DNA from: an uncultured Candidatus Methanogranum sp. | GTDB taxonomy: Archaea; Thermoplasmatota; Thermoplasmata; Methanomassiliicoccales; Methanomethylophilaceae | Direction: 5' to 3' | Length of the DNA: 64,000 nucleotides | NCBI GenBank assembly: GCA_963676045.1 | Contig: OY780938.1 | Coordinates: forward strand, 200,915-264,914 | Shown here: positions 36,273-46,340 of the stretch, one piece after another | Numbering within the stretch: position 1 is the first letter of the stretch | Layout of the letters: the number at the start of each line of letters is the position of its first letter | Notes under the pieces: generated by a model | Seen by the model: the letters and a program-made list of their open reading frames with translations, nothing else | Told to the model about the DNA's origin: nothing | Database searches by the model: none | Position numbers and translations under genes: made by a program

Positions 36273-36297
36273 CTGTCCGTGAGGACAGTCTTTTTTA
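36273..36297 (+). terminator. hairpin plus T-tract terminator
   Basis: ctgtcc-gtga-ggacag followed by tcttttttatttc, 9 nt after the stop at 36264. Confidence 0.55.
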
Positions 36298-36395
36298 TTT
36301 CTTTCAATAGTATTGAATTTATTTTCAACATTCTTCAATTACCTCTGTATCATTTTCATTCAATTTATCCTAATTAGGAATTTATTTCCGAAAAG

Positions 36396-36403
36396 TATAA
36401 TAA
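36396..36403 (+). promoter_or_regulatory. TATA-box-like element of the CoM-associated operon
   Basis: tataataa lies 22 nt upstream of ATG 36426, suggesting a leaderless transcript. Confidence 0.4.
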
Positions 36404-36425
36404 AACCTATCAAACATATAGGATT

Positions 36426-37205
36426 ATGACTGAGATATCAGACCCGATAGTCATAACAGTGTATCCTGGTAGGACAAAAGATGGAAGATCAGAGAATTTC
36501 GAGCCAATAAACATCAGTCTCGGCGATACGATATCTATCGTAGGGCCTACAGGTTCTGGAAAGACAGCATTCATTAATGATATAGAGGTTTTCGCACAGC
36601 GGGACACGATAACGAACCGTCTTGTGAAGGTCAACGGGGAAATGCCATCTGAGGAACTGATCAGGGACCCCGCGCATAAACCTATAGCGATGATAACGCA
36701 GAATACTAAGTGCCTTGCCGATCTCAACGTCAAAGATTTCTTGACCATGCATGCAAGGACGAGGAACAACCTCAACGAAGGCATCGTTCAGAAGGTCATA
36801 TCGCTTGCAAATCAGTTCACAGGCGAAGAGATCAGAGAGGATTACAAGATGTCATCTCTTTCTGGTGGACAGACACGTTCACTCATGATATCCGATGCGG
36901 TCCTGATATCTAATACTCCGATATTGCTATTGGACGAGATAGAGAGTGCGGGAATATTCAAGGACAGGGTCATAACGAAATTGAAGGAACTCAACAAGGC
37001 GGTGATCTTCGTGACACACGACCCATATGTATCGCTGCTATCCGACCGCAGGATAGTGATGAGGGGAGGCGAAGTGATATCGGTACTATATCCGAACGAG
37101 GTCGAGAAGGAGGCGCGTGAGAAGATCCGCGACCTCGATATAGTGTTGTTCACAGTGCGTGAAAGGATAAGGACCGGGGAATTGATCAGGGGCGGATCGA
37201 TTTGA
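36426..37205 (+). CDS. ABC-type ATPase (no permease partner in window)
   Basis: Walker A GPTGSGKT, signature LSGGQ, Walker B ILLLDE, H-loop VTHD. Confidence 0.7.
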   Translation: MTEISDPIVITVYPGRTKDGRSENFEPINISLGDTISIVGPTGSGKTAFINDIEVFAQRDTITNRLVKVNGEMPSEELIRDPAHKPIAMITQNTKCLADLNVKDFLTMHARTRNNLNEGIVQKVISLANQFTGEEIREDYKMSSLSGGQTRSLMISDAVLISNTPILLLDEIESAGIFKDRVITKLKELNKAVIFVTHDPYVSLLSDRRIVMRGGEVISVLYPNEVEKEAREKIRDLDIVLFTVRERIRTGELIRGGSI

Positions 37206-37216
37206 ATGTCAAATTG

Positions 37217-37915
37217 ATGGTGGTGGCAGGACCTCCGAGTTCAGGAAAGACAGCGGTCATAAAGAAGATGATCGAGCACCTTCAACCTGATAAAAAGGTG
37301 GCATACCTGAAGGTCGACGTGGTCGTTGCCTTCGAAGATGAAGAATTGCACAGGGAGTACGGCATACCTACAAAGAAGGTCTATTCTGGGGATATGTGCC
37401 CCGACCACATGGGCATAATGGTTGTCCGCGATGCATTGGACTGGGCAGAGAGGAATGGTGCGGACGTCCTCATATACGAAAGTGCCGGATTATGTCTCAG
37501 ATGCACGCCATATCTGACAGATTCCCTCGGGATATGCGTCATGTCTGCGTTGTCAGGGACCCATGCGCCATTGAAGATGGCCCCGATGATAGCTCTCGCG
37601 GACGCATGCGTCGTCACAAAGACGGACCTCATATCCCAGGCAGAGAAGGAGGTGTTCAGGGAATCCATACGCAAAGTATCACCTCAGATGGACATAGTGG
37701 AGACAAATGCAGTCCAGGGAACGGGGATGAAGTATCTTTTCCGCATAATGGATTCAGTGGAACCCATCGAGGATTTCTCGAAGATGGAACTCAGAGGCGT
37801 GCCACCATTGGGAGTATGCACGATATGTATAGGTAAGAGGAACATCGGATGGCAGAATCATTTCGGCGTGATAAGGAGGATCGAAGATGCAGACAACATC
37901 TATCGCGGAGAATGA
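37217..37915 (+). CDS. G3E/SIMIBI-type P-loop GTPase (UreG/HypB/CobW-like metallochaperone fold)
   Basis: GPPSSGKT, the YESAG switch and a TKTD specificity motif. GDMCPDH resembles the UreG CPH metal site. C-terminal CTIC pair. An alternative TTG start at 37202 overlaps the upstream stop. Confidence 0.6.
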   Translation: MVVAGPPSSGKTAVIKKMIEHLQPDKKVAYLKVDVVVAFEDEELHREYGIPTKKVYSGDMCPDHMGIMVVRDALDWAERNGADVLIYESAGLCLRCTPYLTDSLGICVMSALSGTHAPLKMAPMIALADACVVTKTDLISQAEKEVFRESIRKVSPQMDIVETNAVQGTGMKYLFRIMDSVEPIEDFSKMELRGVPPLGVCTICIGKRNIGWQNHFGVIRRIEDADNIYRGE

Positions 37916-38531
37916 TTGGATCCCCCCAGGCAAGAACTGCGGAGCATGCGGTCTCAATTCATGCGATGATTTTTCAAAGGCATTGAAGGAGGGTAAAGCG
38001 AACCAATACCTTTGCCCGTTCTTCACGACAACTAAGAAAATCTCCGATATAAACATAATACCCAGATACACGGGTCGCGATGTAGTGGGACAGAGCTATT
38101 CCTTTGTTCTGCGCCCTATGCCCGGAGAGATCTCTGCAAGGAAGATCGTTCTTCCGTTCAGGTCGGATCTGGTAGAGAAATGGGACATCAAAGAGGGCGA
38201 TATAGTCGTGGGACGTCCGGCGGGAGCAGGATGTCCAGTACAGCATGTTCTCCGGGTCATCGAGGCCGATCAGGTCACCGGAGTGATAACAGGCCATGTG
38301 GTGGGGCCTTCCTTCTCACGTGGAAAGGATGTAAAAGATGTGAAGTGCTATCATATGCTGGGATTCGAAGGGGGAGTGCTGCCGATCACTGAAGAACCGC
38401 AATTCGGCATGAGGTATCATTTCCTTCCTGGATTCTGTATGCTTGACAGAGCGCATACAGGTTTGGTAAACACTGTGATAAAGAAACCTTGGGGATTGCA
38501 AATACGCATAGAGAACATACTAATCTTGTGA
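37887..38531 (+). CDS. protein with N-terminal RnfB/CdhD-type 4Fe-4S domain, C-terminal domain unknown
   Basis: GKNCGACGLNSCDDFSKAL...YLCPF cysteine pattern. The remaining ~150 aa are unassigned. Confidence 0.55.
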   Translation: MQTTSIAENDWIPPGKNCGACGLNSCDDFSKALKEGKANQYLCPFFTTTKKISDINIIPRYTGRDVVGQSYSFVLRPMPGEISARKIVLPFRSDLVEKWDIKEGDIVVGRPAGAGCPVQHVLRVIEADQVTGVITGHVVGPSFSRGKDVKDVKCYHMLGFEGGVLPITEEPQFGMRYHFLPGFCMLDRAHTGLVNTVIKKPWGLQIRIENILIL

Positions 38532-38535
38532 TAAT

Positions 38536-39771
38536 ATGAGAGACATAGACAGCATTCAAAGTAAGATATCAGAGAGAAAGGCCAAAGTGTACACTGCGAA
38601 GGAGTTCAAGGAAAAGATACGAAATGGCGAGAAGATCGAACTCAAGGATGTGGATGCGATAACATGCGGTACGTTCGGAATAATGTCCGGTACCATGATG
38701 ATACTCACAGTGCCTGTGGCGGGAACAGCAGAATTCAAAAAGGCCGACCGCATCGAATTGAATGGAGTCCCAGGTACTGTGGGGCCATGTCCGAACGAAT
38801 CCCTAGGTGTCGTCGACTGCATTGTGTATGGCACGTCCCATAGGGATGAGGATTACGGGGGAGGGCATCTTTTCAGGGACATCGTCGAAGGAAACGAGAT
38901 CGAAGTGAAGGTCTGGTCAGGAGACCGGCTCTTCATGAGGAACATAACGAAGAAGGACCTGGTATTCTCCAGGATGATCCTCACTCGCGGCGCATTCAAG
39001 AACTACACATGTTTCTTCAATGATACCCAGGAGACATACGACACCATATTCTCCGGAAAGGGAGGCATAAAAGGCAACATGTCCGAGGCCACAGTGAGCG
39101 GATGCGGCGAGATAAATCCACTTCAGAACGACCCAGAGATGAGATACATACGTCCCGGTGCATCCGTCCTGTTGAACGGTTCACCAGGAATGGTGATCGG
39201 TACAGGTTCCAGGAGCAGCGAGCATAAGCCCAATCTGTCCATAGCTGCAGATGTCAAGGACATGATCCCTGAGTACATGGGAGGATTCAGGACATCAGAA
39301 GGTCCAGAATGTCTGACCTCTGTCGGATTTGTAATACCCATCACAGATGAGAAGGCCTTGACCGATGCATCCATACTGGATGAATATTCGGCATTACCTC
39401 TGGCGGACATACACGACAGGATACCCAGATCAAAGGACCTATACTCTTCCGTCTGGAGAGGAACCGATCACGACATATGTGCAGACGGGTCGAAATGCAT
39501 ACATTGCGATTTTTGCGAGGCAGAGGAGATGTGCCCCCTCGATGCATTGAGTCCAGGAGGAGAGATCGACAGGACCCTTTGCATGTCCTGTGGGTATTGC
39601 ACATCCACATGCGTGGGCAATGTCTTCAGTGCGGAACTCGGGAGCATAAGATACGAGGGAAAGGAGATCCCGATAACACTCAGACAGTCATCCCGTACCA
39701 AGGGTGAAGAGCTTTGCGAGGTCCTGAAGAAGAGGACGGCAGAGGGTAAATGGGACCTCAGGGTGTTCTGA
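38536..39771 (+). CDS. COG1900/DUF39 domain protein fused to 2x[4Fe-4S] ferredoxin domain
   Basis: KVYTAKEF...VDAITCGTFGIMSGT is the N-terminal DUF39 pattern. The C-terminus has CIHCDFCEAEEMCP and CMSCGYCTSTC. Confidence 0.75.
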   Translation: MRDIDSIQSKISERKAKVYTAKEFKEKIRNGEKIELKDVDAITCGTFGIMSGTMMILTVPVAGTAEFKKADRIELNGVPGTVGPCPNESLGVVDCIVYGTSHRDEDYGGGHLFRDIVEGNEIEVKVWSGDRLFMRNITKKDLVFSRMILTRGAFKNYTCFFNDTQETYDTIFSGKGGIKGNMSEATVSGCGEINPLQNDPEMRYIRPGASVLLNGSPGMVIGTGSRSSEHKPNLSIAADVKDMIPEYMGGFRTSEGPECLTSVGFVIPITDEKALTDASILDEYSALPLADIHDRIPRSKDLYSSVWRGTDHDICADGSKCIHCDFCEAEEMCPLDALSPGGEIDRTLCMSCGYCTSTCVGNVFSAELGSIRYEGKEIPITLRQSSRTKGEELCEVLKKRTAEGKWDLRVF

Positions 39772-41018
39772 TGGGGGAATACAGGCTCAAATGTCTCGAT
39801 GGAGGAGAATCCATAGAGGATGATTATTCGCTCATCTGCCCTAACGGTCACATCGGATTGCTAAGGACGGAATATGCGAATAAACGTCTGGAATTGACAG
39901 ACGCGAGCGGGATCTTCAAGTTCTATGAATGGCTCCCTGTTCATTCGATCATAAGGACATCCTCTGCCCCCGTGGTATTCAGGAACGATGAGCTTTCCAG
40001 AGAGCTTGGTCTGAAGGACCTATGGATAGGGTTCACAGGTTACTATCCGGAGAGAGGTGCATATGTGACATCTGGGTCCTTCAAGGAGATGGAGGCATTC
40101 CCGACCTATGCCCGCCTAAATGACCACGGCGGCGGTACGATACTCTTGGCATCTGCTGGCAATACTGCGAGGGCATTCGCACAGGTGGCAGAGGAGACCG
40201 GTCATAGGTGCGCGATCGTCGTACCTAGAAGGTCCAAGGATAGATTGAAGGTCACCAAGGATACAGGAAAGGTCAGCCTATTCACAGTGGATGGGGATTA
40301 TACCGATGCCATACAGATGTCGGACCGGATATCCTCCTTAGGTGGTTTCGTGTCCGAAGGAGGTGCCAAGAACGTGGCAAGGAGGGATGGCATGGGAACC
40401 GTGATGTTGGAGGCCGCGCTGTCCATGAAGAGTCTGCCTGACCATTATTTTCAGGCTGTAGGCAGTGGCACAGGGGGCATAGCGGCTTGGGAAGCATCCA
40501 TGCGCCTCTTGGCGGACGGACGTTTCGGTGACAGGTTACCAGTATTGGACCTCGCACAGAACATGCCATTCGCACCAATGGCGAAGGCATGGAATGCGGG
40601 ACGCAGGGAGATATCTTCAGAGGACCTAGGGGATGCGACAGCGGATGAGAAGGCCGTATATGCGGATGTACTGACCAATCGCAAACCCCCCTACGGGATC
40701 AAGGGCGGCGTGTTCGATGCCATGACCGATTGCAGAGGAAGGTTCTTCGGAATATCTAACGATGAGGCATTATACGCAGAAAAGCTATGGTCCTCCATGG
40801 AATCCGTACATCTAGATCCTGCCGCAGCAGTGGCATTGGCAGCATTGATAAAGGCTGTAGATGAAGGCAAGGTCTCGAAGTATGACAAGATCCTCCTCAA
40901 TATGACCGGCGGAGGCATAGACCGTGCAGAGAAGGACCTTGGGATGAGGACCATAAGGCCCAAGGCCGATCTAGACAAGGACATATCCAAAGAAGAGCTG
41001 GAGGAGATCGTCAGATGA
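39771..41018 (+). CDS. cysteate synthase (threonine synthase-like PLP enzyme)
   Basis: ThrC-fold with GSFKEMEA (PLP lysine region) and GNTARAF. It sits immediately upstream of fused comDE, as in the Methanosarcinales CoM cluster. TGATG start/stop overlap. Confidence 0.7.
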   Translation: MGEYRLKCLDGGESIEDDYSLICPNGHIGLLRTEYANKRLELTDASGIFKFYEWLPVHSIIRTSSAPVVFRNDELSRELGLKDLWIGFTGYYPERGAYVTSGSFKEMEAFPTYARLNDHGGGTILLASAGNTARAFAQVAEETGHRCAIVVPRRSKDRLKVTKDTGKVSLFTVDGDYTDAIQMSDRISSLGGFVSEGGAKNVARRDGMGTVMLEAALSMKSLPDHYFQAVGSGTGGIAAWEASMRLLADGRFGDRLPVLDLAQNMPFAPMAKAWNAGRREISSEDLGDATADEKAVYADVLTNRKPPYGIKGGVFDAMTDCRGRFFGISNDEALYAEKLWSSMESVHLDPAAAVALAALIKAVDEGKVSKYDKILLNMTGGGIDRAEKDLGMRTIRPKADLDKDISKEELEEIVR

Positions 41019-42121
41019 ACGAGCAAAAGGTAATTGACATGATAAGGTCCGAAGGCGTCGATCTCATAGCGAGCCTGCCTTGTGACCGCAACAGGTCATT
41101 CACATCCATGATACATGAGCAATTCGATGTCGTGGACCTCACTCGTGAAGAGGACGGAGTGGGTGTTTGCGCAGGTGCATTCATGGGCGGACGCAAGCCC
41201 ATGATATCGATACAGAGCTCCGGTCTAGGGAACATGATGAATGCGCTCATGTCGTTGACAGCATTCTACGGCCTTCCACTTCCAATAATGGCAAGTTGGA
41301 GAGGTGTCGACAACGAGACAATAGAGGCGCAGAAGATGTTCAACACCAAGATTCCAGACATGTTGGACGTTTTCAGGATCGAGCACGTAGTGATCAGATC
41401 CGAAGACGATTCAGATTCGATAAGGGGCGCCATCAGGAGAGCCTTCGATGAGAACAGGATAGTCGTCATGCTGGTCTATCCAAGTTTTTGGGAACCACAA
41501 TCAGAGGTCGGATCCGCATATCCGTCCAGGGCGCGCGAGATACATGCATCTCTGAGTAAGCGGACAAAGGAGCCGAAGATGACGAGGTTGGAAGCGATAG
41601 GGAAGATAATGTCATCGATATCCGACGAGGATATCGTGGTTTCCAATATCGGCATCCCTTCCAAGGAGGTATTCGCTTCAAAGGACCGGTGTCTGAACTT
41701 CTACATGCTTGGGAGTTACACTCAGGCGACGCCAGTGGGCCTCGGATTGGCCATTTCTACCGATAGGCACGTCTACGTCATCGATGGTGATGGGAGTTTG
41801 TTGGGCTCTTCCATATTGTCGGTTGTGGCCGATATCTCGCCAGACAATATGACCATAATATGCCTTGACAATGGAACATACGGCTCCACAGGCAATCAGA
41901 TCACGCAGGCGTATTCCATATTGGATATGGAGCTGTTAGCAATCGCATATGGTATAGAGAACACAACATCGATAAATGACATCGAAGAGATAGGGCCCAG
42001 GGTCCTGACCAGAGGCGGCCCGGCATTCATACAGGTCCTGATAGTGCCTTTCAATTCGAAATCACCGAACATCGGATATTCTGCTCAAGAGATAAGGGAC
42101 AGGTTCATGGGAAATCTATGA
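41015..42121 (+). CDS. comDE: sulfopyruvate decarboxylase, fused alpha-beta
   Basis: 368 aa, with a ThDP-enzyme N-terminal half (GVDLIASLPCD...EEDGVGVCAG) and C-terminal half (GDGSLLG...DNGTYGSTGNQ). ATGA overlaps on both sides. Confidence 0.85.
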   Translation: MNEQKVIDMIRSEGVDLIASLPCDRNRSFTSMIHEQFDVVDLTREEDGVGVCAGAFMGGRKPMISIQSSGLGNMMNALMSLTAFYGLPLPIMASWRGVDNETIEAQKMFNTKIPDMLDVFRIEHVVIRSEDDSDSIRGAIRRAFDENRIVVMLVYPSFWEPQSEVGSAYPSRAREIHASLSKRTKEPKMTRLEAIGKIMSSISDEDIVVSNIGIPSKEVFASKDRCLNFYMLGSYTQATPVGLGLAISTDRHVYVIDGDGSLLGSSILSVVADISPDNMTIICLDNGTYGSTGNQITQAYSILDMELLAIAYGIENTTSINDIEEIGPRVLTRGGPAFIQVLIVPFNSKSPNIGYSAQEIRDRFMGNL

Positions 42122-42810
42122 AGAAACGCATGCATCTGCATATCGAGGAGTCTGAGATCAGCGTATCTGCGGACGAGCTCTTCTTCGAAAAGATAAACGA
42201 TTCGGTAAGGGAGGCACGTGGGATCATAAAAAGGAAGATCCGCGAAGACCCCTTTTTCGGCATAACCTACGACCCATATCCGCCGACCCCATCGGACGAC
42301 CTCCTGATAAGGAGGATGTGCCTGGCGTCGGTATCCGCTGGAGTAGGGCCGATGGCGGCTGTTGCCGGCGCTGTCGCAACATACGTGATAGAAGCATTGA
42401 TCGAATCAGGTTGCAAAGATGCGGTGATAGACAATGGCGGGGACATTGCATTGATATCAGAGAACGGAACGGTAATAAAGATATACTCCGGTAATGACGA
42501 TACGGAAGGTATCGGCCTTAGGATACCGAATACCGAACATATATTGGGCATATGCACCTCTTCCGGAAGGATAGGACATTCCATATCGTTCGGGAATGCG
42601 GATGTCGCGACTGTGATATCTGAAGATCCGATACTCGCAGATGCTTGCGCCACGGCTCTCGGGAATATGATATCCGATGAATCGAACCTTTCATCTGCCG
42701 TCGAGAGAATATGCAGGATCGAGGGCGTCAAGGGTTGTTTCGCATTCATGGATGGTTCTGTGGCATCCTGCGGCGATGTACCTGAGTTCATAAGTTTGGA
42801 AAGGGAATGA
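42118..42810 (+). CDS. UPF0280/COG2122 ApbE-like protein
   Basis: GPMAAVAGAVATYV...VIDNGGDIAL pattern of the ApbE-like superfamily; ~230 aa, as in the UPF0280 family. Confidence 0.6.
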   Translation: MKKRMHLHIEESEISVSADELFFEKINDSVREARGIIKRKIREDPFFGITYDPYPPTPSDDLLIRRMCLASVSAGVGPMAAVAGAVATYVIEALIESGCKDAVIDNGGDIALISENGTVIKIYSGNDDTEGIGLRIPNTEHILGICTSSGRIGHSISFGNADVATVISEDPILADACATALGNMISDESNLSSAVERICRIEGVKGCFAFMDGSVASCGDVPEFISLERE

Positions 42811-43478
42811 TGTCAATGAAGTATGGTGGATTGGATCCGAAGGAATTCGATAAGAGGGCGGTTGTTACCATACCGTTCTACAACGAGTTGCATGAGAATG
42901 TAATAGAGGTTATAAGCCATTCAGGAGTCACTCCCAATGTCTGGTTGGACACCGGATGCGGCACAGGGAAGCTTTTATCTCTTTCAATGGGGAGATTCAA
43001 GGATACGGAGTTCATAATGGCGGATCCGATGGAAGGGATGCTTGATATCGCCAAGGAGAGATCAGGCGAACGTCCAAAATACATCTGTTCTCCGACAGAC
43101 GCATTGAAGATCCCCGATTCCAGCGTCGACGTCATAACGGCCGTGCTCTCCCACCATTATTATTCTCCCGAGGACAGGATGAAGGCTGAAAGTAATTGTT
43201 TCAGGATGCTCCGTCCAGGAGGAATCTTCGTCACTGTCGAGAATACGGCCCCATTGACGGATGTCGGATTGAATATGGGACTGGAAACATGGAAGGATAA
43301 GCAGATGTCGGCAGGAAGACCGGAATGCGAGGCCGACGAGCATATGAGGAGATACGGCACCGAATTCTTCCCGATAACCGCCCCTCAGCACATAGAGCAA
43401 TTGAAAAAGATAGGATTCAGTGTAGTCGAGTTGTTCAGGTACACGTACATGCAGGCAGGGTTCTACGCAATAAAGTGA
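42807..43478 (+). CDS. class I SAM-dependent methyltransferase
   Basis: Motif I WLDTGCGTGKL and post-I/II motifs (ADPMEGML, DVITAVLSHHY). ATGA overlap with the upstream gene. Confidence 0.75.
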   Translation: MMSMKYGGLDPKEFDKRAVVTIPFYNELHENVIEVISHSGVTPNVWLDTGCGTGKLLSLSMGRFKDTEFIMADPMEGMLDIAKERSGERPKYICSPTDALKIPDSSVDVITAVLSHHYYSPEDRMKAESNCFRMLRPGGIFVTVENTAPLTDVGLNMGLETWKDKQMSAGRPECEADEHMRRYGTEFFPITAPQHIEQLKKIGFSVVELFRYTYMQAGFYAIK

Positions 43479-43524
43479 ATCCTCTTATGCGATGTTTTTT
43501 CTCGTCGTACGTCGATATGGACTC

Positions 43525-43842
43525 ATGGCAGTGAAACAGGTCAACAAGCTCGTGCGTGACAAGATACCCGCTATAATAATGGAGTCGGGGGCTTTCCCGG
43601 ATTTCAGGATATTGAATGAGGAAGAGTTCTTCAAGGCATTGGAGGACAAGCTCTTCGAAGAGGTGGAGGAGTACAGGAAAGACAGAACTCTGGAAGAATT
43701 GGCGGACATATATCAGATGGTCGTCTGTTTGGCAGAGGTCCTGGGCGGAGGACGGAGGGAATTGGAATACATCGCAGACGAGAAAAGGATACAGCGTGGA
43801 AAATTCGATGCACGCATATTCTTGGAATCCGTTTCTGATTGA
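43525..43842 (+). CDS. MazG-like all-alpha NTP pyrophosphohydrolase
   Basis: KLVRDKIPAII...EEVEEY...ELADIYQMV pattern. ATG 43525 chosen over the listed 43492. Confidence 0.65.
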   Translation: MAVKQVNKLVRDKIPAIIMESGAFPDFRILNEEEFFKALEDKLFEEVEEYRKDRTLEELADIYQMVVCLAEVLGGGRRELEYIADEKRIQRGKFDARIFLESVSD

Positions 43843-43843
43843 T

Positions 43844-44290
43844 TCATGAATTCTGATGCGGGGAGGCCATCATCCTGAAGGCGTTACCATGGTCGGTGTA
43901 GAAATCCTCCAGGAACTCCGTCTCGATGAATCCTCTCCTCTTGTAGAACATTATGGTCTCTGGATCTGTATCCCTGACCTCCAGTTGGATCATGGAGCAT
44001 CCTCTCACCACGGATGCTATCTTGAATTCCTTCAGCAATTCGTTGCCCACTCCCATGCCCCTGTGCTGCTCATCTACGGCGAAAAGGGAGATAGTGGCCC
44101 GGTTGTTCTCCAACAATGCACCGCATATGTATCCGATGACCCTGCCGGTCAGATCGCATGAGACCAATTGTCCGTTCGGCCATTGGGCTATGAAGAAACT
44201 GAATACCTCAGGGACATAATACTGGTCTAGACTGGCGCATGTTATCCTATATACGGCGCCCGCATCCTCGTTCCTCATCCTTCTGATCAT
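43844..44290 (-). CDS. GNAT N-acetyltransferase (RimI-like)
   Basis: Acetyl-CoA site HRGMGVGNELL. ATG 44290 avoids overlap with the upstream gene, which ends at 44298. Confidence 0.8.
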   Translation of the reverse strand: MIRRMRNEDAGAVYRITCASLDQYYVPEVFSFFIAQWPNGQLVSCDLTGRVIGYICGALLENNRATISLFAVDEQHRGMGVGNELLKEFKIASVVRGCSMIQLEVRDTDPETIMFYKRRGFIETEFLEDFYTDHGNAFRMMASPHQNS

Positions 44291-44297
44291 ATGGAAA

Positions 44298-46340
44298 TCA
44301 ACCGTTCCTTCTCTTGATCGCAACCAATGTGCCGACGATGGCGATGGCCACAGCGGAGATGCCTGCCAAGAGACCTTTGCCATCCGACAGAAGATCGCCA
44401 TCAGATCCGTTCTGTGCATCGCTGACGGTGAATGAGCAATAGGTCGTATTTATGGTATCCTGTATGCTGACCTTCATCTTATGCTCACCCGGGGGCAATC
44501 CATTCAGTGCAAGTCTCGGTATATCGGTCGTGATAGATTCTCCGTCATCAAGTGACCAGATATATGTAAGCGATCCTGGGGCATTCACGGCGAATATATA
44601 GAAACCTTCGAAATCCGATGTACCTTTTTCGACAGTTATCTCGATATCATCCAGTTCTGCGGTGTTATTGTCCTTCCAATCCTTCATGAAATATCCTGTG
44701 AAGAATCCATTCACCTCCGTTGAGTAGATCACGACTGCCGTCTCACGATTGTCAAGGAATGAAGTCTCAGTCCAATTGACGGAGCCGACCCATGTGATGT
44801 CACCATCGATGAGCACACCTTTGTTATGCGTGGTCTGGAATCCATCTCCGCCGTCTATCGAACAGGCCTTCACATCTGTAGTTGTGTTGATCAGATTTAT
44901 CATCGGGGAGACATCATCAATGGAGCCGTCGAGTATGAATCTGCATTGAACTCCTCTGTTGGCAGCGTCATTCATCCATGAGATCGGAGAATCATCATCT
45001 ATCTTCGAGTATGAATTTCCAAGGTCCAGTTGTTCTGAGGATATGCTATGGTCGGCTCCCTCCATCAGTTCCTTCAATGCATCGTAGGAGTTATCAGGCG
45101 ATAATATAGGCACTACTTCGGATTGATAATGGCCCATTTCGTATTCTTTTGCCGGCGAGGTGTAGGAAAGGTCTCCACGGTAAGGTTTCAAGTCAGGGAA
45201 TCTTTCCATGAGCGGGACCGCATCTCCATACGAGGCATCATGGTCATTCTCCCATATATCCATCATATATTGGGCATATTCATCGCTTTCGATCATCACG
45301 CCCCATCCACGATTTGCATATCTGGATCCGCTCATGTTGTCTGTGGTCCAATTCTCTGAAGTGATTATGACTTTATCTCCATCAATGATCGCGTATTTGT
45401 TGTGGAAAAAGGAGAATCTCTCATAGTTCCCTGATTCAGGCGTATTTATGGTCCAAACTTCTCCGCCTGACATGACTATGGATCCCATCAACGATAGTTC
45501 GGTGCTCATATCATAGTTCAGAGGATCCCCTTCGATGATGATTTTAACATCCACATGTTCATCCCCCGTTCTTTCTTCCAGGTCTATCAAAAGCCCTACA
45601 AGATTCTTGCTGGTCAGTTGATATATGGAGATCAATACCTCATCATCGGCCTGTTCTATCGCCCTGTATATCGGTATGCCCTCTGATTCGGGGAATGTGA
45701 ATGGTGACACAATGCAGTCCATGGGCTCATCAGGGTCAAATTCACGGTTGGTCAGTCCGGGTTTCGTCTTTATCCAGTCAGCTGAGGTGTCAGTATCCAA
45801 CACGCCTGTTCTTAATATGTAGGAATTCGATGAGATAGGCACAGGGGATCCTGACCAGCCAATGGAGGCGGTCTTGTTTCCATAGCATACGGAATCCATC
45901 AACATCGAATCTGATGACAATGTGACATCATCGCCAGAGTTGTTCAATATGAAACTACCTGTTTTGGTTACACCGTTGGTGTTCACATGGATAACTGGAT
46001 CCCTCGATGAGAACCAATCATCATCGGCGTCCCCTATCACGACCGTAAGACGTGAACGAGAGGCTATCGTCAACGACTTCGTGAACGAGATCGTCCCTTC
46101 ACCGTCCGTGACCTTCATTCCAAGCAGATCCACGTCGGTGGAACCATAATTGTAAAGTGAGAATCCTTCGTTACCATATGGGTCCACCTCATAGATCCTC
46201 ACGAGACAGGTAGAATCGCCATCAGAATAATCGATGAATAAAGGTATGGAAAAGATGCATGATGCGATTATGATGAGGATGGATGCCTTTCGGACGATGT
46301 TCGATCCGATCATCGAGCGTAAGGCCATCCGATCACTCAA
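44298..46340 (-). CDS. membrane-anchored extracellular protein: lamin-tail domain + two PLD HKD motifs (Nuc-like) + Ig-like domain
   Basis: N-terminal TM/signal and an LTD-like VRIYEVDPYGNEGFSLYNYGSTDVDLLGMKVTDGEG. HKD motifs are HNKYAIIDGDKVIITSENWT and HNKGVLIDGDITWVGSVNWT. C-terminal TM is LLAGISAVAIAIVGTLVAIKRR. Confidence 0.75.
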   Translation of the reverse strand: MSDRMALRSMIGSNIVRKASILIIIASCIFSIPLFIDYSDGDSTCLVRIYEVDPYGNEGFSLYNYGSTDVDLLGMKVTDGEGTISFTKSLTIASRSRLTVVIGDADDDWFSSRDPVIHVNTNGVTKTGSFILNNSGDDVTLSSDSMLMDSVCYGNKTASIGWSGSPVPISSNSYILRTGVLDTDTSADWIKTKPGLTNREFDPDEPMDCIVSPFTFPESEGIPIYRAIEQADDEVLISIYQLTSKNLVGLLIDLEERTGDEHVDVKIIIEGDPLNYDMSTELSLMGSIVMSGGEVWTINTPESGNYERFSFFHNKYAIIDGDKVIITSENWTTDNMSGSRYANRGWGVMIESDEYAQYMMDIWENDHDASYGDAVPLMERFPDLKPYRGDLSYTSPAKEYEMGHYQSEVVPILSPDNSYDALKELMEGADHSISSEQLDLGNSYSKIDDDSPISWMNDAANRGVQCRFILDGSIDDVSPMINLINTTTDVKACSIDGGDGFQTTHNKGVLIDGDITWVGSVNWTETSFLDNRETAVVIYSTEVNGFFTGYFMKDWKDNNTAELDDIEITVEKGTSDFEGFYIFAVNAPGSLTYIWSLDDGESITTDIPRLALNGLPPGEHKMKVSIQDTINTTYCSFTVSDAQNGSDGDLLSDGKGLLAGISAVAIAIVGTLVAIKRRNG

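Follow-up and report, generated by a model that had tools for sequence, protein, structure and literature searches.

The association of coenzyme M (CoM) biosynthesis genes with an ABC-type ATPase, a G3E GTPase and an Fe-S protein raises the question of whether such an operon encodes one machine for a single sulfur-insertion step or several functions. This was analysed in a 64,000-nucleotide stretch of DNA (the window) from a gut methanogen, an archaeon of the Methanomethylophilaceae, in which the original prediction had joined eight genes in a multi-component machinery for the last step of CoM synthesis. The region is read here as a CoM biosynthesis operon; as a whole explanation, including the roles proposed below for the three upstream genes (the trio) and for the COG2122 protein, this has about an even chance of being correct.

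Layout and boundaries of the operon

An open reading frame check recovered eight plus-strand genes between 36426 and 43478, with the coordinates and tight same-strand packing described earlier, the junctions being overlaps of 1-29 nt or gaps of 4-11 nt. They were assigned to a soluble ABC-type ATPase of 259 aa (g1, 36426..37205), a G3E-family GTPase (g2, 37202..37915, alternative start 37217), a 'COG2000' Fe-S protein (g3, 37887..38531), the methanogenesis marker 16 metalloprotein and CoM synthase MMP16/ComF (g4, 38536..39771), cysteate synthase (CS; g5, 39750..41018, alternative start 39771), a fused sulfopyruvate decarboxylase ComDE (g6, 41015..42121), a COG2122/UPF0280 ApbE-like protein (g7, 42118..42810) and a class I SAM-dependent methyltransferase (g8, 42807..43478). 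HMM searches agreed with the original assignment for every family named. The TTG start of g2 at 37202 results in a 4-nt overlap with g1, and the ATG at 37217 in an 11-nt gap. The g2 and g3 genes overlap by 29 nt, with a GGAGG 8 nt 5' of the g3 ATG, and a gap of 4 nt separates g3 from g4. The start of g5 is likely the ATG at 39771, overlapping g4 by 1 nt, rather than the ATG at 39750 (22-nt overlap), and the g5/g6, g6/g7 and g7/g8 junctions are 4-nt overlaps of the ATGA type. The g1-g6 arrangement is not a chance one, since 52 of the 54 archaeal loci whose flanks were long enough keep the same order.

The promoter predicted at 36396 was located as the TATA box TATAATAA (36396-36403, plus strand), 22 nt 5' of the g1 ATG and preceded by a BRE-like GAAAAG (36390..36403 for both elements). 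A T.A.A box occupies the same position in 13 related loci, in which the distance from the A/T box to the ATG is kept and the sequence between them is not conserved. The 22-nt distance implies a predicted g1 mRNA that is leaderless or nearly so. Approximately 16 nt 5' of the TATA box, the palindromic element TTATCCTAATTAGGAA (36365..36380, plus strand) is likely an operator, judging from sequence and position: TTATCC is invariant or near-invariant in 13 Methanomethylophilaceae loci with varying flanks, and a second, TTATCC-like half-site lies 3' of the palindrome. No genome-wide enrichment of the motif was seen. The upstream limit of the unit is a terminator-like hairpin CTGTCCGTGAGGACAG followed by a T-run TCTTTTTTAT (36273..36298, plus strand), which ends the preceding LonB-like AAA+ gene. 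The T-tract expected near 43495 was found 3' of the g8 stop as seven thymines (43494..43500, plus strand) and probably serves as the archaeal terminator of this unit; a weakly MazG-like ORF (43531-43842) begins beyond it. A single predicted promoter would drive all eight genes.

The coenzyme M enzymes and the genes downstream

The g4 product exceeded the cut-off of the MMP16 model TIGR03287 (481 bits versus 364) and scored 296 bits on PF01837, on which L-ASST types score ~500, placing it as predicted in the CoM-linked clade and not in the homocysteine clade. A 2x[4Fe-4S] ferredoxin with eight invariant cysteines is inserted into its COG1900 domain. The genome has no other COG1900 gene, and L-ASST was not found in it. 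Cysteate synthase was identified by TIGR03844 (584 bits versus 325), and g6 fuses ComD and ComE halves, passing TIGR03845 (187 bits versus 148) and scoring 206 bits on TIGR03846, under the cut-off of 221.5. The earlier reading of a CoM operon held, its core being the type-2 CoM pathway already known, with CS, fused ComDE and MMP16/ComF. By family models and literature, CS joins sulfite to phosphoserine to give cysteate, a housekeeping aminotransferase encoded elsewhere yields sulfopyruvate, ComDE decarboxylates this to sulfoacetaldehyde, and MMP16 converts sulfoacetaldehyde to the CoM thiol. The last step had been considered not firmly assigned; it is now assigned, because genetics has shown MMP16 to be the principal CoM synthase (PMC12068725). 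The CS of this genome needs sulfite, yet tblastn detected no ATP sulfurylase; ComA was also not detected by tblastn.

The g7 product, encoded by a single-copy gene, matched PRK04334/UPF0280 and, weakly, ApbE, and contains an invariant Cys146. In other genomes its counterpart lies behind L-ASST and a ferredoxin; the Phosphitispora gene at this position is 33% identical to g7. Within the order, COG2122 was present in 54/54 genomes with any COG1900 and in 0/7 without (61 genomes; Fisher p = 2e-9, no phylogeny correction). In 47 genomes of the order it follows L-ASST on the same strand at a distance of <1 kb, and in 5/5 MMP16-only genomes, including this one, it flanks the CoM cluster at ~2.4 kb from MMP16. 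Bacteria have the same L-ASST-ferredoxin-COG2122 order, and a DUF39 gene adjoining COG2122 has been reported (PMC4045070). Because this genome lacks L-ASST, COG2122 most likely works here with MMP16. The predicted coupling of COG2122 to CoM enzymes was upheld in having a likely partner in the operon, but as a general linkage it was not, being confined to Methanomassiliicoccales.

The L-ASST system, MA1821 (COG1900), MA1822 (NIL-ferredoxin) and MA1715 (COG2122), likewise combines an aldehyde-to-thiol enzyme, a ferredoxin module and COG2122. In the present operon, by contrast, the COG1900 protein is of the MMP16 type, the ferredoxin is fused, the substrate is sulfoacetaldehyde, COG2122 is parted from MMP16 by CS and ComDE, and the genome is without L-ASST. 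COG2122 is probably a generic sulfide-trafficking partner of COG1900 sulfurtransferases, and g7 would supply sulfide-derived sulfur to ComF here, because L-ASST, the homocysteine enzyme, would have been lost in this lineage and the single COG2122 kept and moved into the CoM operon. COG2122 thus appears to be linked to ComF; against this, adjacency is not interaction, and MMP16 and L-ASST may differ in their use of sulfur donors (PMC12068725).

The methyltransferase gene followed g7 in only one other locus (L002), from a related genus. The g8 gene is read as a recent passenger, a lineage-specific tail gene, and not part of a conserved machinery as had been proposed. Since g7 linkage is order-limited and g8 is shared with only one other genus, the eight genes do not form a single conserved machinery.

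Protein families of the trio

The co-localization of an ATPase, a Ni2+-binding GTPase and a COG2000 Fe-S protein with CoM genes, their role given as unknown, was already present in PLoS Genet 2025 (PMC12068725, Fig. 2B legend), so that the machinery cannot be called undescribed as far as the trio is concerned. The clusters of Chadwick, Williams, Shalvarjian and Nayak share MMP16, CS, ComDE and the trio with ours; there the trio appears in the figure legend only, and in the window the operon additionally contains g7 and g8. PMC12068725 does not report a COG2122 gene within a CoM cluster, the deep split of the trio into two subfamilies or bacterial trios that stand alone.

The g1 ATPase matched ABC_tran (50 bits) and contains Walker A GPTGSGKT, LSGGQ, Walker B LLLDE and VTHD motifs. 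SufC, PhnK/PhnL of C-P lyase and component A2 of methyl-CoM reductase activation are soluble ABC ATPases that power enzyme complexes. Like these, g1 is a ~250-aa single nucleotide-binding domain with no membrane partner and with Fe-S or metal-protein neighbours, but its partner proteins are unrelated, and no sequence kinship closer than that to generic importer nucleotide-binding domains was found. The g2 GTPase matched cobW/G3E (56 bits); its CPDH motif (C66-P-D-H69) is invariant, as are C98, C101, C206-x2-C209 and H220. It shares with HypB and UreG (PDB 2hf8, 4hi0) the P-loop, a Cys-x-x-His metal motif between Walker A and B, Cys residues after the ExxG Walker B and an [N/T]KxD motif. It differs from them in that it reads TKTD where they have NKxD and carries an additional invariant CxxC...H at the C-terminus; it also falls below both equivalog cut-offs (HypB, its best match, 78.6 versus 121; UreG, 34 versus 204), and its partners are the ABC ATPase and a novel Fe-S protein rather than HypA or UreEFD. 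The g3 protein matched PF04060 (38 bits) through its first 45 residues, a four-cysteine [4Fe-4S] domain of the type at the N-terminus of the CFeSP large subunit and RnfB (profile E = 1.8e-5; fold match to PDB 4djd, 2ycl and 7zc6 with Foldseek probability 0.98 and rmsd ~1 Å). The remaining 150 residues, unlike CFeSP/RnfB, make up a domain rich in beta structure. It carries a Cys2His2 set that is invariant (C116, H120, C184, H190), and no relatives of this domain were detected in Pfam, PDB sequences or PDB folds.

Distribution and possible roles of the trio

Co-conservation of the first three genes with CoM genes was confirmed: the trio was contiguous in 61/61 archaeal loci, and g1 adjoined g2 in 72 of the 73 loci, archaeal and bacterial together, whose upstream flank was long enough. 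In ~50 type-A loci, as in the window, the g3 stop lies 4 nt before MMP16. Type-B clusters are arranged CS-g1-g2-g3-ComD-ComE, with MMP16 on the opposite strand as a separate convergent unit. Methanothrix carries a CS-g1-g2-g3 operon alone, without MMP16; single loci showed CS-trio (L112), trio-CS-ComDE without MMP16 (L050), trio-MMP16-ComA-ComB-ComC-ComDE (L037) and the trio with MMP16 only (L070). The trio was missing from 38 L-ASST-positive archaea and from four MMP16-positive ones (G032, G045, G069, G057), the first of which has an MMP16-CS-ComDE-COG2122 cluster. Full-length g3 in the order tracked MMP16-type COG1900 (14/15 versus 4/46, p = 2e-9, uncorrected for phylogeny) and not L-ASST.

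The bacterial survey covered 251 genomes of one phylum (Bacillota), 17 of them trio-positive; as everywhere here, co-occurrence statistics were uncorrected for phylogeny, and the bacterial trio sequences are one clade. ComA was present in 16/17 trio-positive genomes versus 79/234 others (p = 9e-7), and COG1900 in 14/17 versus a background of 30% (p = 3e-5); the latter association persisted inside the ComA-positive subset and in ComA-positive, ATP sulfurylase-negative genomes (10/13 versus 5/47). None of the 103 genomes with neither ComA nor COG1900 had the trio. Bona fide ComDE was found in no genome of the survey and CS in 0/10 checked, and there are trio-positive bacteria with neither MMP16 nor ComDE. 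Trio and ATP sulfurylase tended to exclude each other in ComA- and COG1900-containing genomes (3/13 versus 13/18; p = 0.011, post hoc). COG1900 failed as a proxy for genomes without sulfate activation (OR 1.6). Seventy COG1900-positive bacteria lacked the trio; three trio-positive bacteria lacked any COG1900, as did an Auribacterota genome, whose trio adjoins a 4,6-dehydratase-like SDR inside a pseudaminic-acid operon. A stand-alone three-gene operon with no conserved neighbour was found at eight Bacillota loci and at L107 and L099.

The original prediction made the trio, COG2122 and MMP16 one sulfur-insertion machine. In such a machine, the ABC ATPase and Fe-S protein would push electrons of low potential into ComF, or the GTPase would equip it with a metal or sulfur centre. 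Activation of methyl-CoM reductase by component A2 and Fe-S proteins provides the analogy. The 4-nt spacing of g3 and MMP16, the locus with only these genes, the tracking of MMP16-type COG1900 by g3 and the bacterial COG1900 association all favour support of ComF, as do family priors for accessory or activation roles (G3E metallochaperone, soluble ABC ATPase, low-potential PF04060 cluster domain). However, the trio is predicted to be transcribed with CS and ComDE, apart from MMP16, in type-B clusters, stands with CS alone in Methanothrix, occurs in bacteria without COG1900 or without MMP16 and ComDE, and is missing from many COG1900-positive bacteria, L-ASST-positive archaea and the four MMP16-positive genomes. 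No g3-COG1900 fusion was found among 1.84 billion representatives, and M. jannaschii MMP16 alone enables E. coli to convert sulfoacetaldehyde to CoM (PMC12068725). The trio shows no specific tie to the thiolation enzyme, and its membership in a thiolation machine is unlikely.

Less likely again is that the trio assembles and repairs metallocentres or Fe-S clusters in general, serving neither CS/ComA nor COG1900 but perhaps another enzyme common to these anaerobes, its location in CoM operons then reflecting co-regulation or hitch-hiking. Solitary trio operons, CoM producers that do without the trio, the resemblance of g1 to SufC in size and motifs, and the abundance of Cys and His in g2 and g3 would suit such an assembly module; the tight placement inside CoM operons in two independent arrangements, with both CS and ComA pathways, and the absence of the trio where ComA and COG1900 are both missing speak against it. 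It is highly improbable that g1 energizes a sulfonate, sulfite or metal transporter with its permease elsewhere and that g2 is the HypB of [NiFe]-hydrogenase maturation. Best matches to importer domains and HypB, the status of g2 as the sole G3E gene in the genome and a TauE/SafE-family gene 5 kb from one bacterial trio suggest it, but none of ~95 loci inspected has a permease or binding-protein gene beside the trio, and g2, with sub-cut-off scores and an extra CxxC...H tail, never occurs apart from g1 and g3.

We lean towards provisioning of inorganic sulfur for sulfonate synthesis over support of ComF, with sulfite or an equivalent for CS or ComA the foremost candidate, a tentative reading that we hold at somewhat under even odds. 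In its favour are the archaeal arrangements that join the trio to CS or ComA, the bacterial ComA association, the post hoc exclusion between trio and ATP sulfurylase, the sulfite need of CS in a genome with no ATP sulfurylase by tblastn, and the Auribacterota trio in a genome free of COG1900. Against it are the observations that favour ComF support and the failure of COG1900 as a proxy; moreover, none of the three protein families points to a six-electron oxidation of sulfide, and the pairing of an ABC ATPase with a G3E GTPase is more reminiscent of chaperone or activation machinery. The trio is also dispensable, given the trio-less CoM cluster of G032 and the 47 of 95 ComA-positive bacteria with neither trio nor ATP sulfurylase. 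Under sulfite provisioning, the trio would be a self-contained, NTP-driven metallo/Fe-S module in which g1 would be the conformational motor, g2 would contribute a Cys/His metal site and g3 a [4Fe-4S] domain with a new Cys2His2 domain. It would hand sulfite or a sulfite equivalent to CS or ComA, outside the thiolation step.

Layout and identity of the coenzyme M operon

Eight co-directional genes, designated g1 to g8, occupy 36426-43478 of the forward strand. They encode an ABC ATPase (g1), a G3E GTPase (g2), a 'COG2000' Fe-S protein (g3), the coenzyme M (CoM) synthase MMP16, also called ComF (g4; COG1900/DUF39), cysteate synthase (g5), the sulfopyruvate decarboxylase ComDE (g6), a COG2122 protein (g7) and a methyltransferase (g8); g1-g2-g3 are referred to as the trio. 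ORF listing and junction analysis confirmed the original prediction that the eight genes overlap or are closely spaced. The g5/g6, g6/g7 and g7/g8 junctions are three ATGA-type 4-nt overlaps, g2/g3 overlap by 29 nt with a GGAGG 8 nt upstream, g4/g5 overlap by 1 or 22 nt, and g3/g4 are separated by 4 nt. The g1/g2 junction is a 4-nt overlap with a TTG start or an 11-nt gap with an ATG start.

The upstream boundary of the operon is a hairpin and T-run at the end of the preceding gene (36273-36298), and the downstream boundary is a T7 tract after g8 (43494-43500). The 160-bp spacer before g1 is AT-rich (GC 0.40) and contains a TATA-type box, TATAATAA, at 36396-36403, 22 nt from the g1 ATG. When the 70 nt upstream of g1 were aligned for 13 Methanomethylophilaceae loci of several genera, the position of this A/T box was constant, the stretch from box to ATG was unconserved, and a TTATCCT-N4-AGGAA palindrome about 16 nt upstream of the box was nearly invariant. 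Within this element, shortly before the TATA box, is a perfect 12-nt palindrome, TCCTAATTAGGA (36365-36380). Because the box and the palindrome are both conserved in the 13 loci, the promoter call is supported and an operator is suggested, the candidate being the conserved element TTATCCTAATTAGGAA. The palindrome was not enriched genome-wide (16 sites against about 20 expected), and its conservation suggests that the CoM operon has a regulator of its own, for which it is a candidate site. Taken together, the overlapping junctions and the conserved promoter support a single predicted transcription unit. A scan for sigma-70 promoters and intrinsic terminators returned 12 promoter-like sites against 12.1 expected and was uninformative, as the model is bacterial and the host archaeal.

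An XRE-type HTH_3 regulator gene is divergent from, and just upstream of, the CoM/trio cluster at the Methanothrix loci L101/L102 (4576-5091; type B trio) and likewise in another archaeal contig, L109 (4953-5441; type A trio); no such gene adjoins the CoM cluster in the window. The T-tract is followed by a 103-aa ORF with weak MazG-like similarity (43531-43842) and a GNAT acetyltransferase gene on the minus strand (43844-44419), neither of which is kept beside the cluster elsewhere.

Pfam and NCBIfam models identified the families of g1-g8, and the family assignments originally predicted proved correct, that of g7 as probable, its model score lying below the cut-off. The g5 product is cysteate synthase (equivalog TIGR03844, 583.8 bits against a cut-off of 324.9). 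The g6 product is a fusion of ComD and ComE; its alpha part scored 187.3 bits with TIGR03845 (cut-off 148), and its beta part, at 205.8 bits with TIGR03846, fell slightly below the cut-off of 221.5 but is fused and syntenic with cysteate synthase. The aminotransferase step between cysteate and 2-oxoglutarate is ascribed in the literature to a general aspartate aminotransferase, whose gene lies outside the cluster. The g8 product is a class I SAM methyltransferase; among the best 80 loci of g3 relatives, g8 recurred only in the closest genus (L002) and is a passenger.

The g4 protein is MMP16 (TIGR03287, 481.4 bits against 363.95) with a fused 2x[4Fe-4S] ferredoxin module containing eight invariant cysteines (residues 321-359). 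PF01837 scores in 61 genomes of the order were bimodal, at 284-345 bits for the MMP16 type and 480-523 bits for L-ASST, the homocysteine-type COG1900 enzyme; g4 scored 296, which places it, on the question of a CoM-linked or a homocysteine clade, with the MMP16 type. In M. acetivorans, genetic evidence identified MMP16 as the main CoM synthase (PMC12068725, PLoS Genet 2025), and conversion of sulfoacetaldehyde to CoM by g4 is predicted from this orthologue, to which the genetic proof is limited (PMC12068725).

The window's own genome is a complete 1.59-Mb chromosome with exactly one gene each for COG1900, COG2122, G3E and g3. Since the single COG1900 gene is of the MMP16 type, the genome lacks L-ASST. 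Four other genomes of the family likewise have MMP16 as sole COG1900 and no L-ASST. Homocysteine may be supplied in the window's genome by a bifunctional MMP16 or by another route, or there may be a methionine requirement. An MMP16-type rather than L-ASST-type COG1900 score (314 bits) was also obtained in one bacterial genome that has no trio (G244:C14:194195-195388).

Conservation of the cluster and of the trio

Scanning a single genome of each species with a degenerate pattern recovered g3 relatives from 348 species, and the best 80 loci were analysed. Among these, the trio was contiguous in all 61 archaeal loci with room for it, and MMP16, cysteate synthase and ComDE followed it in 52 of 54 archaeal loci; g7 was within 10 kb only in Methanomassiliicoccales (14/26 loci), where it followed ComDE or lay upstream of g1 in divergent orientation. 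The closest g3 relatives of the window's genome were in Ca. Methanoplasma and Methanogranum. With g7 restricted to Methanomassiliicoccales and g8 to the closest genus, the conserved unit comprises six genes and not the eight first proposed; g7 is a clade-specific recruit.

Earlier work noted frequent adjacency of DUF39 genes to COG2122 and a second DUF39 gene beside cysteate synthase and ComDE (PMC4045070). The CoM core and its co-localisation with the trio, the latter in PMC12068725, are thus already published; their mechanism is not. The window operon is thus the published CoM cluster with the trio, to which COG2122 and the methyltransferase are appended. The original interpretation, that a CoM operon here carries an undescribed sulfur-insertion machinery, held for the CoM operon and not for the novelty of the trio beside CoM genes. 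A literature search for a characterised trio, or for a stated sulfite source, returned nothing beyond PMC12068725. The present analysis adds the co-occurrence of COG2122 with COG1900 and its relocation, two trio subfamilies with their arrangements, the bacterial distribution of the trio, and the promoter palindrome.

The trio falls into two subfamilies. Type A was found in the window, Methanomicrobiales, Methanimicrococcus and Bacillota, and type B, about 30% identical in g3, in Methanomassiliicoccaceae, Methanothrix and Methanolobus (L092-L094, L100-L102 and L110-L113, compared with window 36426-38531). Identity between the types is about 30% for g3 and about 41% for g1 and g2, whereas within a subfamily it exceeds 50% across orders. 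The two families of Methanomassiliicoccales therefore have different trio types. Methanomethylophilaceae g3 nests in the Methanocorpusculum/Methanimicrococcus clade (99/96 support), and this position of the window-type trio suggests lateral acquisition of the cluster.

Complete archaeal CoM clusters, 55-60% identical to that of the window, were also present on five contigs labelled Dialister hominis (L016), Faecalibacterium sp. (L018), Acutalibacteraceae (L022), Eggerthellaceae (L023) and Bacilli (L035). The only one of the five placed in the tree, L016, had its g3 inside the Methanomassiliicoccales sequences. All five are probably mis-binned methanogen contigs.

The trio is dispensable. A close relative, G032, has MMP16-CS-ComDE-COG2122 (CS, cysteate synthase) and no trio (L095, G032:C4, 7484-11917). 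The only trace of the trio there is a weak g1-like remnant overlapping the MMP16 start. The converse decay was seen in G066 (L096), where g2, g3 and ComDE are present and g1 is reduced to a truncated copy, with neither CS nor MMP16.

COG2122 as a probable partner of COG1900

The g7 protein scored 236 bits with the PRK04334 model NF003324 (cut-off 275) and matched the UPF0280 structure PDB 2o34 at E = 2.8e-27; its ApbE match was weak (E = 0.007). The 61 genomes of the order were searched for PF01837, g7 and g3. COG2122 was single-copy, present in exactly the 54 genomes with any COG1900 gene and absent from the other seven. In 52 of these genomes it adjoined COG1900, either the gene or its cluster, and in the remaining two its position was unclear because of fragmented assemblies. 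In 47 genomes COG2122 followed L-ASST in the same orientation at a distance of about 0.5 kb, a gap that fits a small ferredoxin gene; in Phosphitispora the order was L-ASST-ferredoxin-COG2122, with COG2122 33% identical to g7. In all five MMP16-only genomes (the window's own, G032, G036, G040 and G062), COG2122 flanked the CoM cluster, with about 2.4 kb between it and MMP16.

MMP16-linked and L-ASST-linked copies were alike in identity to g7 (47-52% in the family) and are thus one orthologous group. This perfect co-occurrence, together with the move into the CoM operon where L-ASST was lost, argues for COG2122 as a general COG1900 partner beyond homocysteine synthesis. On these comparative grounds we infer that COG2122 partners COG1900 enzymes in general and would serve ComF here.

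Gene contexts and possible function of the trio

The g1 product has an ABC nucleotide-binding domain (PF00005, 50.3 bits against 25) with an LSGGQ signature. No permease or binding-protein gene accompanied it in the loci inspected, where the conserved neighbours were g2, g3 and the CoM enzymes. The g2 product (PF02492, 56.1 bits against 20.7) conserves the motifs GPPSSGKT, C66PDH69, ESAGLC98LRC101 and TKTD in 80 sequences; CPDH, the cysteine pair following Walker B and a CxxC...H at the C-terminus are invariant among them. In an alignment with M. jannaschii HypB it matches around the metal site; HypB is also its nearest family, with a score below cut-off (TIGR00073, 78.6 against 121.2; UreG, 34 against 204). 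A transporter subunit and the cell's HypB were considered as identities for these two proteins and rejected: g1 has no permease at any locus inspected, and g2 is below the cut-offs and never apart from g1 and g3. We regard either as highly improbable.

The g3 product, equated with 'COG2000' by description in PMC12068725 and not by COG number, has an N-terminal PF04060 domain (37.9 bits against 23), a four-Cys CFeSP/RnfB-type domain matched in both sequence (E = 1.8e-5) and fold (rmsd about 1 Å). Both subfamilies retain C18, C21, C26 and C43, and C116, H120, C184 and H190, without exception. The beta-rich C-domain was modelled at pLDDT >90 over most of residues 60-214; a model-based search gave no PDB fold match at E <= 0.001, and no match was found in a profile search of PDB sequences or a permissive Pfam search. 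The family is tiny; a search of 1.84 billion proteins yielded 210 representatives at 50% clustering. None of the 210 is fused to a partner enzyme, the long matches being PF04060 repeats.

The archaeal gene orders place the trio with both CoM pathway variants. Type A loci read trio-MMP16-CS-ComDE; type B loci read CS-trio-ComD-ComE, with MMP16 convergent on the opposite strand. Methanothrix has a four-gene CS-trio operon, L112 has CS-trio and then an IS element, L050 has trio-CS-ComDE and L070 has trio-MMP16. The ComA-type variant is represented by L037 (trio-MMP16-ComA-ComB-ComC-ComDE). Judged from gene order, the trio is apparently always co-transcribed with a sulfoacetaldehyde-forming gene set, L070 excepted, and only sometimes with MMP16.

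Eight Bacillota loci have the trio by itself, without a constant neighbour. Ten bacterial genomes with the trio (nine Bacillota and an Auribacterota MAG) were checked: by PF01837, an L-ASST-type COG1900 gene was present elsewhere in nine, and cysteate synthase was found in none. Among 251 genomes of the bacterial phylum, 17 had the trio, 84 COG1900, 95 ComA, 52 ATP sulfurylase and none a bona fide ComDE. A hidden CoM pathway in the trio bacteria was ruled out by the counts for ComDE (0/251) and cysteate synthase (0/10). The trio occurred in 13 of the 31 genomes with both ComA and COG1900, in 3 of 64 with ComA only, in 1 of 53 with COG1900 only and in none of the 103 with neither. It was thus associated with ComA (16/17; OR 31, p = 9e-7) and with COG1900 (14/17; OR 11, p = 3e-5). 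ComA and COG1900 were independent of each other (OR 0.94). ATP sulfurylase was anticorrelated with the trio in the genomes with both ComA and COG1900 (3/13 against 13/18; p = 0.011, post hoc), and the trio-COG1900 association was kept in ComA-positive, ATP sulfurylase-negative genomes. COG1900 as a proxy for a lack of sulfate activation was unsupported (OR 1.6 with ATP sulfurylase, not significant). All of these statistics ignore kinship and may include clade effects, the bacterial trios being one clade.

In the Auribacterota MAG, which lacks COG1900, the trio genes lie within a pseudaminic-acid operon (PseB-PseC...PseF-PseG-PseH; L053, 7037-16088) in the order PseB, PseC, g3, SDR, g1, g2, PseF, PseG, GNAT and B12-radical SAM, the SDR being 4,6-dehydratase-like. 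One stand-alone bacterial trio has, about 5 kb upstream, a CBS-domain gene and a member of the TauE/SafE sulfite exporter family (L107, 1-874), possibly by coincidence.

We know of no resolved sulfite source for sulfide-grown methanogens. Provisioning of sulfite, or of inorganic sulfur, is tentatively our reading of the trio. Its association with ComA and cysteate synthase, the ComA-type operon at L037, a complementarity with ATP sulfurylase that is weak and in the right direction, and the absence of ATP sulfurylase from the window's own genome are consistent with it. However, the association with COG1900 is equally real, and the protein families resemble a chaperone or activation device. Support of ComF/COG1900 by the trio would draw on the COG1900 association, and the inconstant linkage to MMP16 counts against it; we consider it somewhat unlikely. 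A general metallocentre factor would match the protein families, and we hold it improbable beside the associations with ComA and COG1900. The remaining weight is unassigned.

The sulfite reading extends to a broader proposal, rather doubtful as a whole, in which the trio would be a nucleotide-driven metalloenzyme system that has so far gone unrecognised in strict anaerobes. Where sulfide is the sole sulfur source assimilated and sulfate activation is missing, it would generate sulfite for, or hand it over to, sulfonate synthases (cysteate synthase, ComA and possibly sugar sulfonation). The trio may split S-S/S-O species and so serve both a sulfite-using enzyme and the COG1900/COG2122 thiolation enzymes; such a dual role would explain why the bacterial trio is nearly confined to genomes with both ComA and COG1900.

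Methanogenesis cannot proceed without CoM, and methane mitigation takes gut Methanomethylophilaceae as targets. The window operon brings together, in one predicted transcription unit, candidate genes for two steps of CoM synthesis, namely the provision of sulfite to cysteate synthase or ComA in sulfide-grown methanogens and the supply of sulfur and electrons to ComF.
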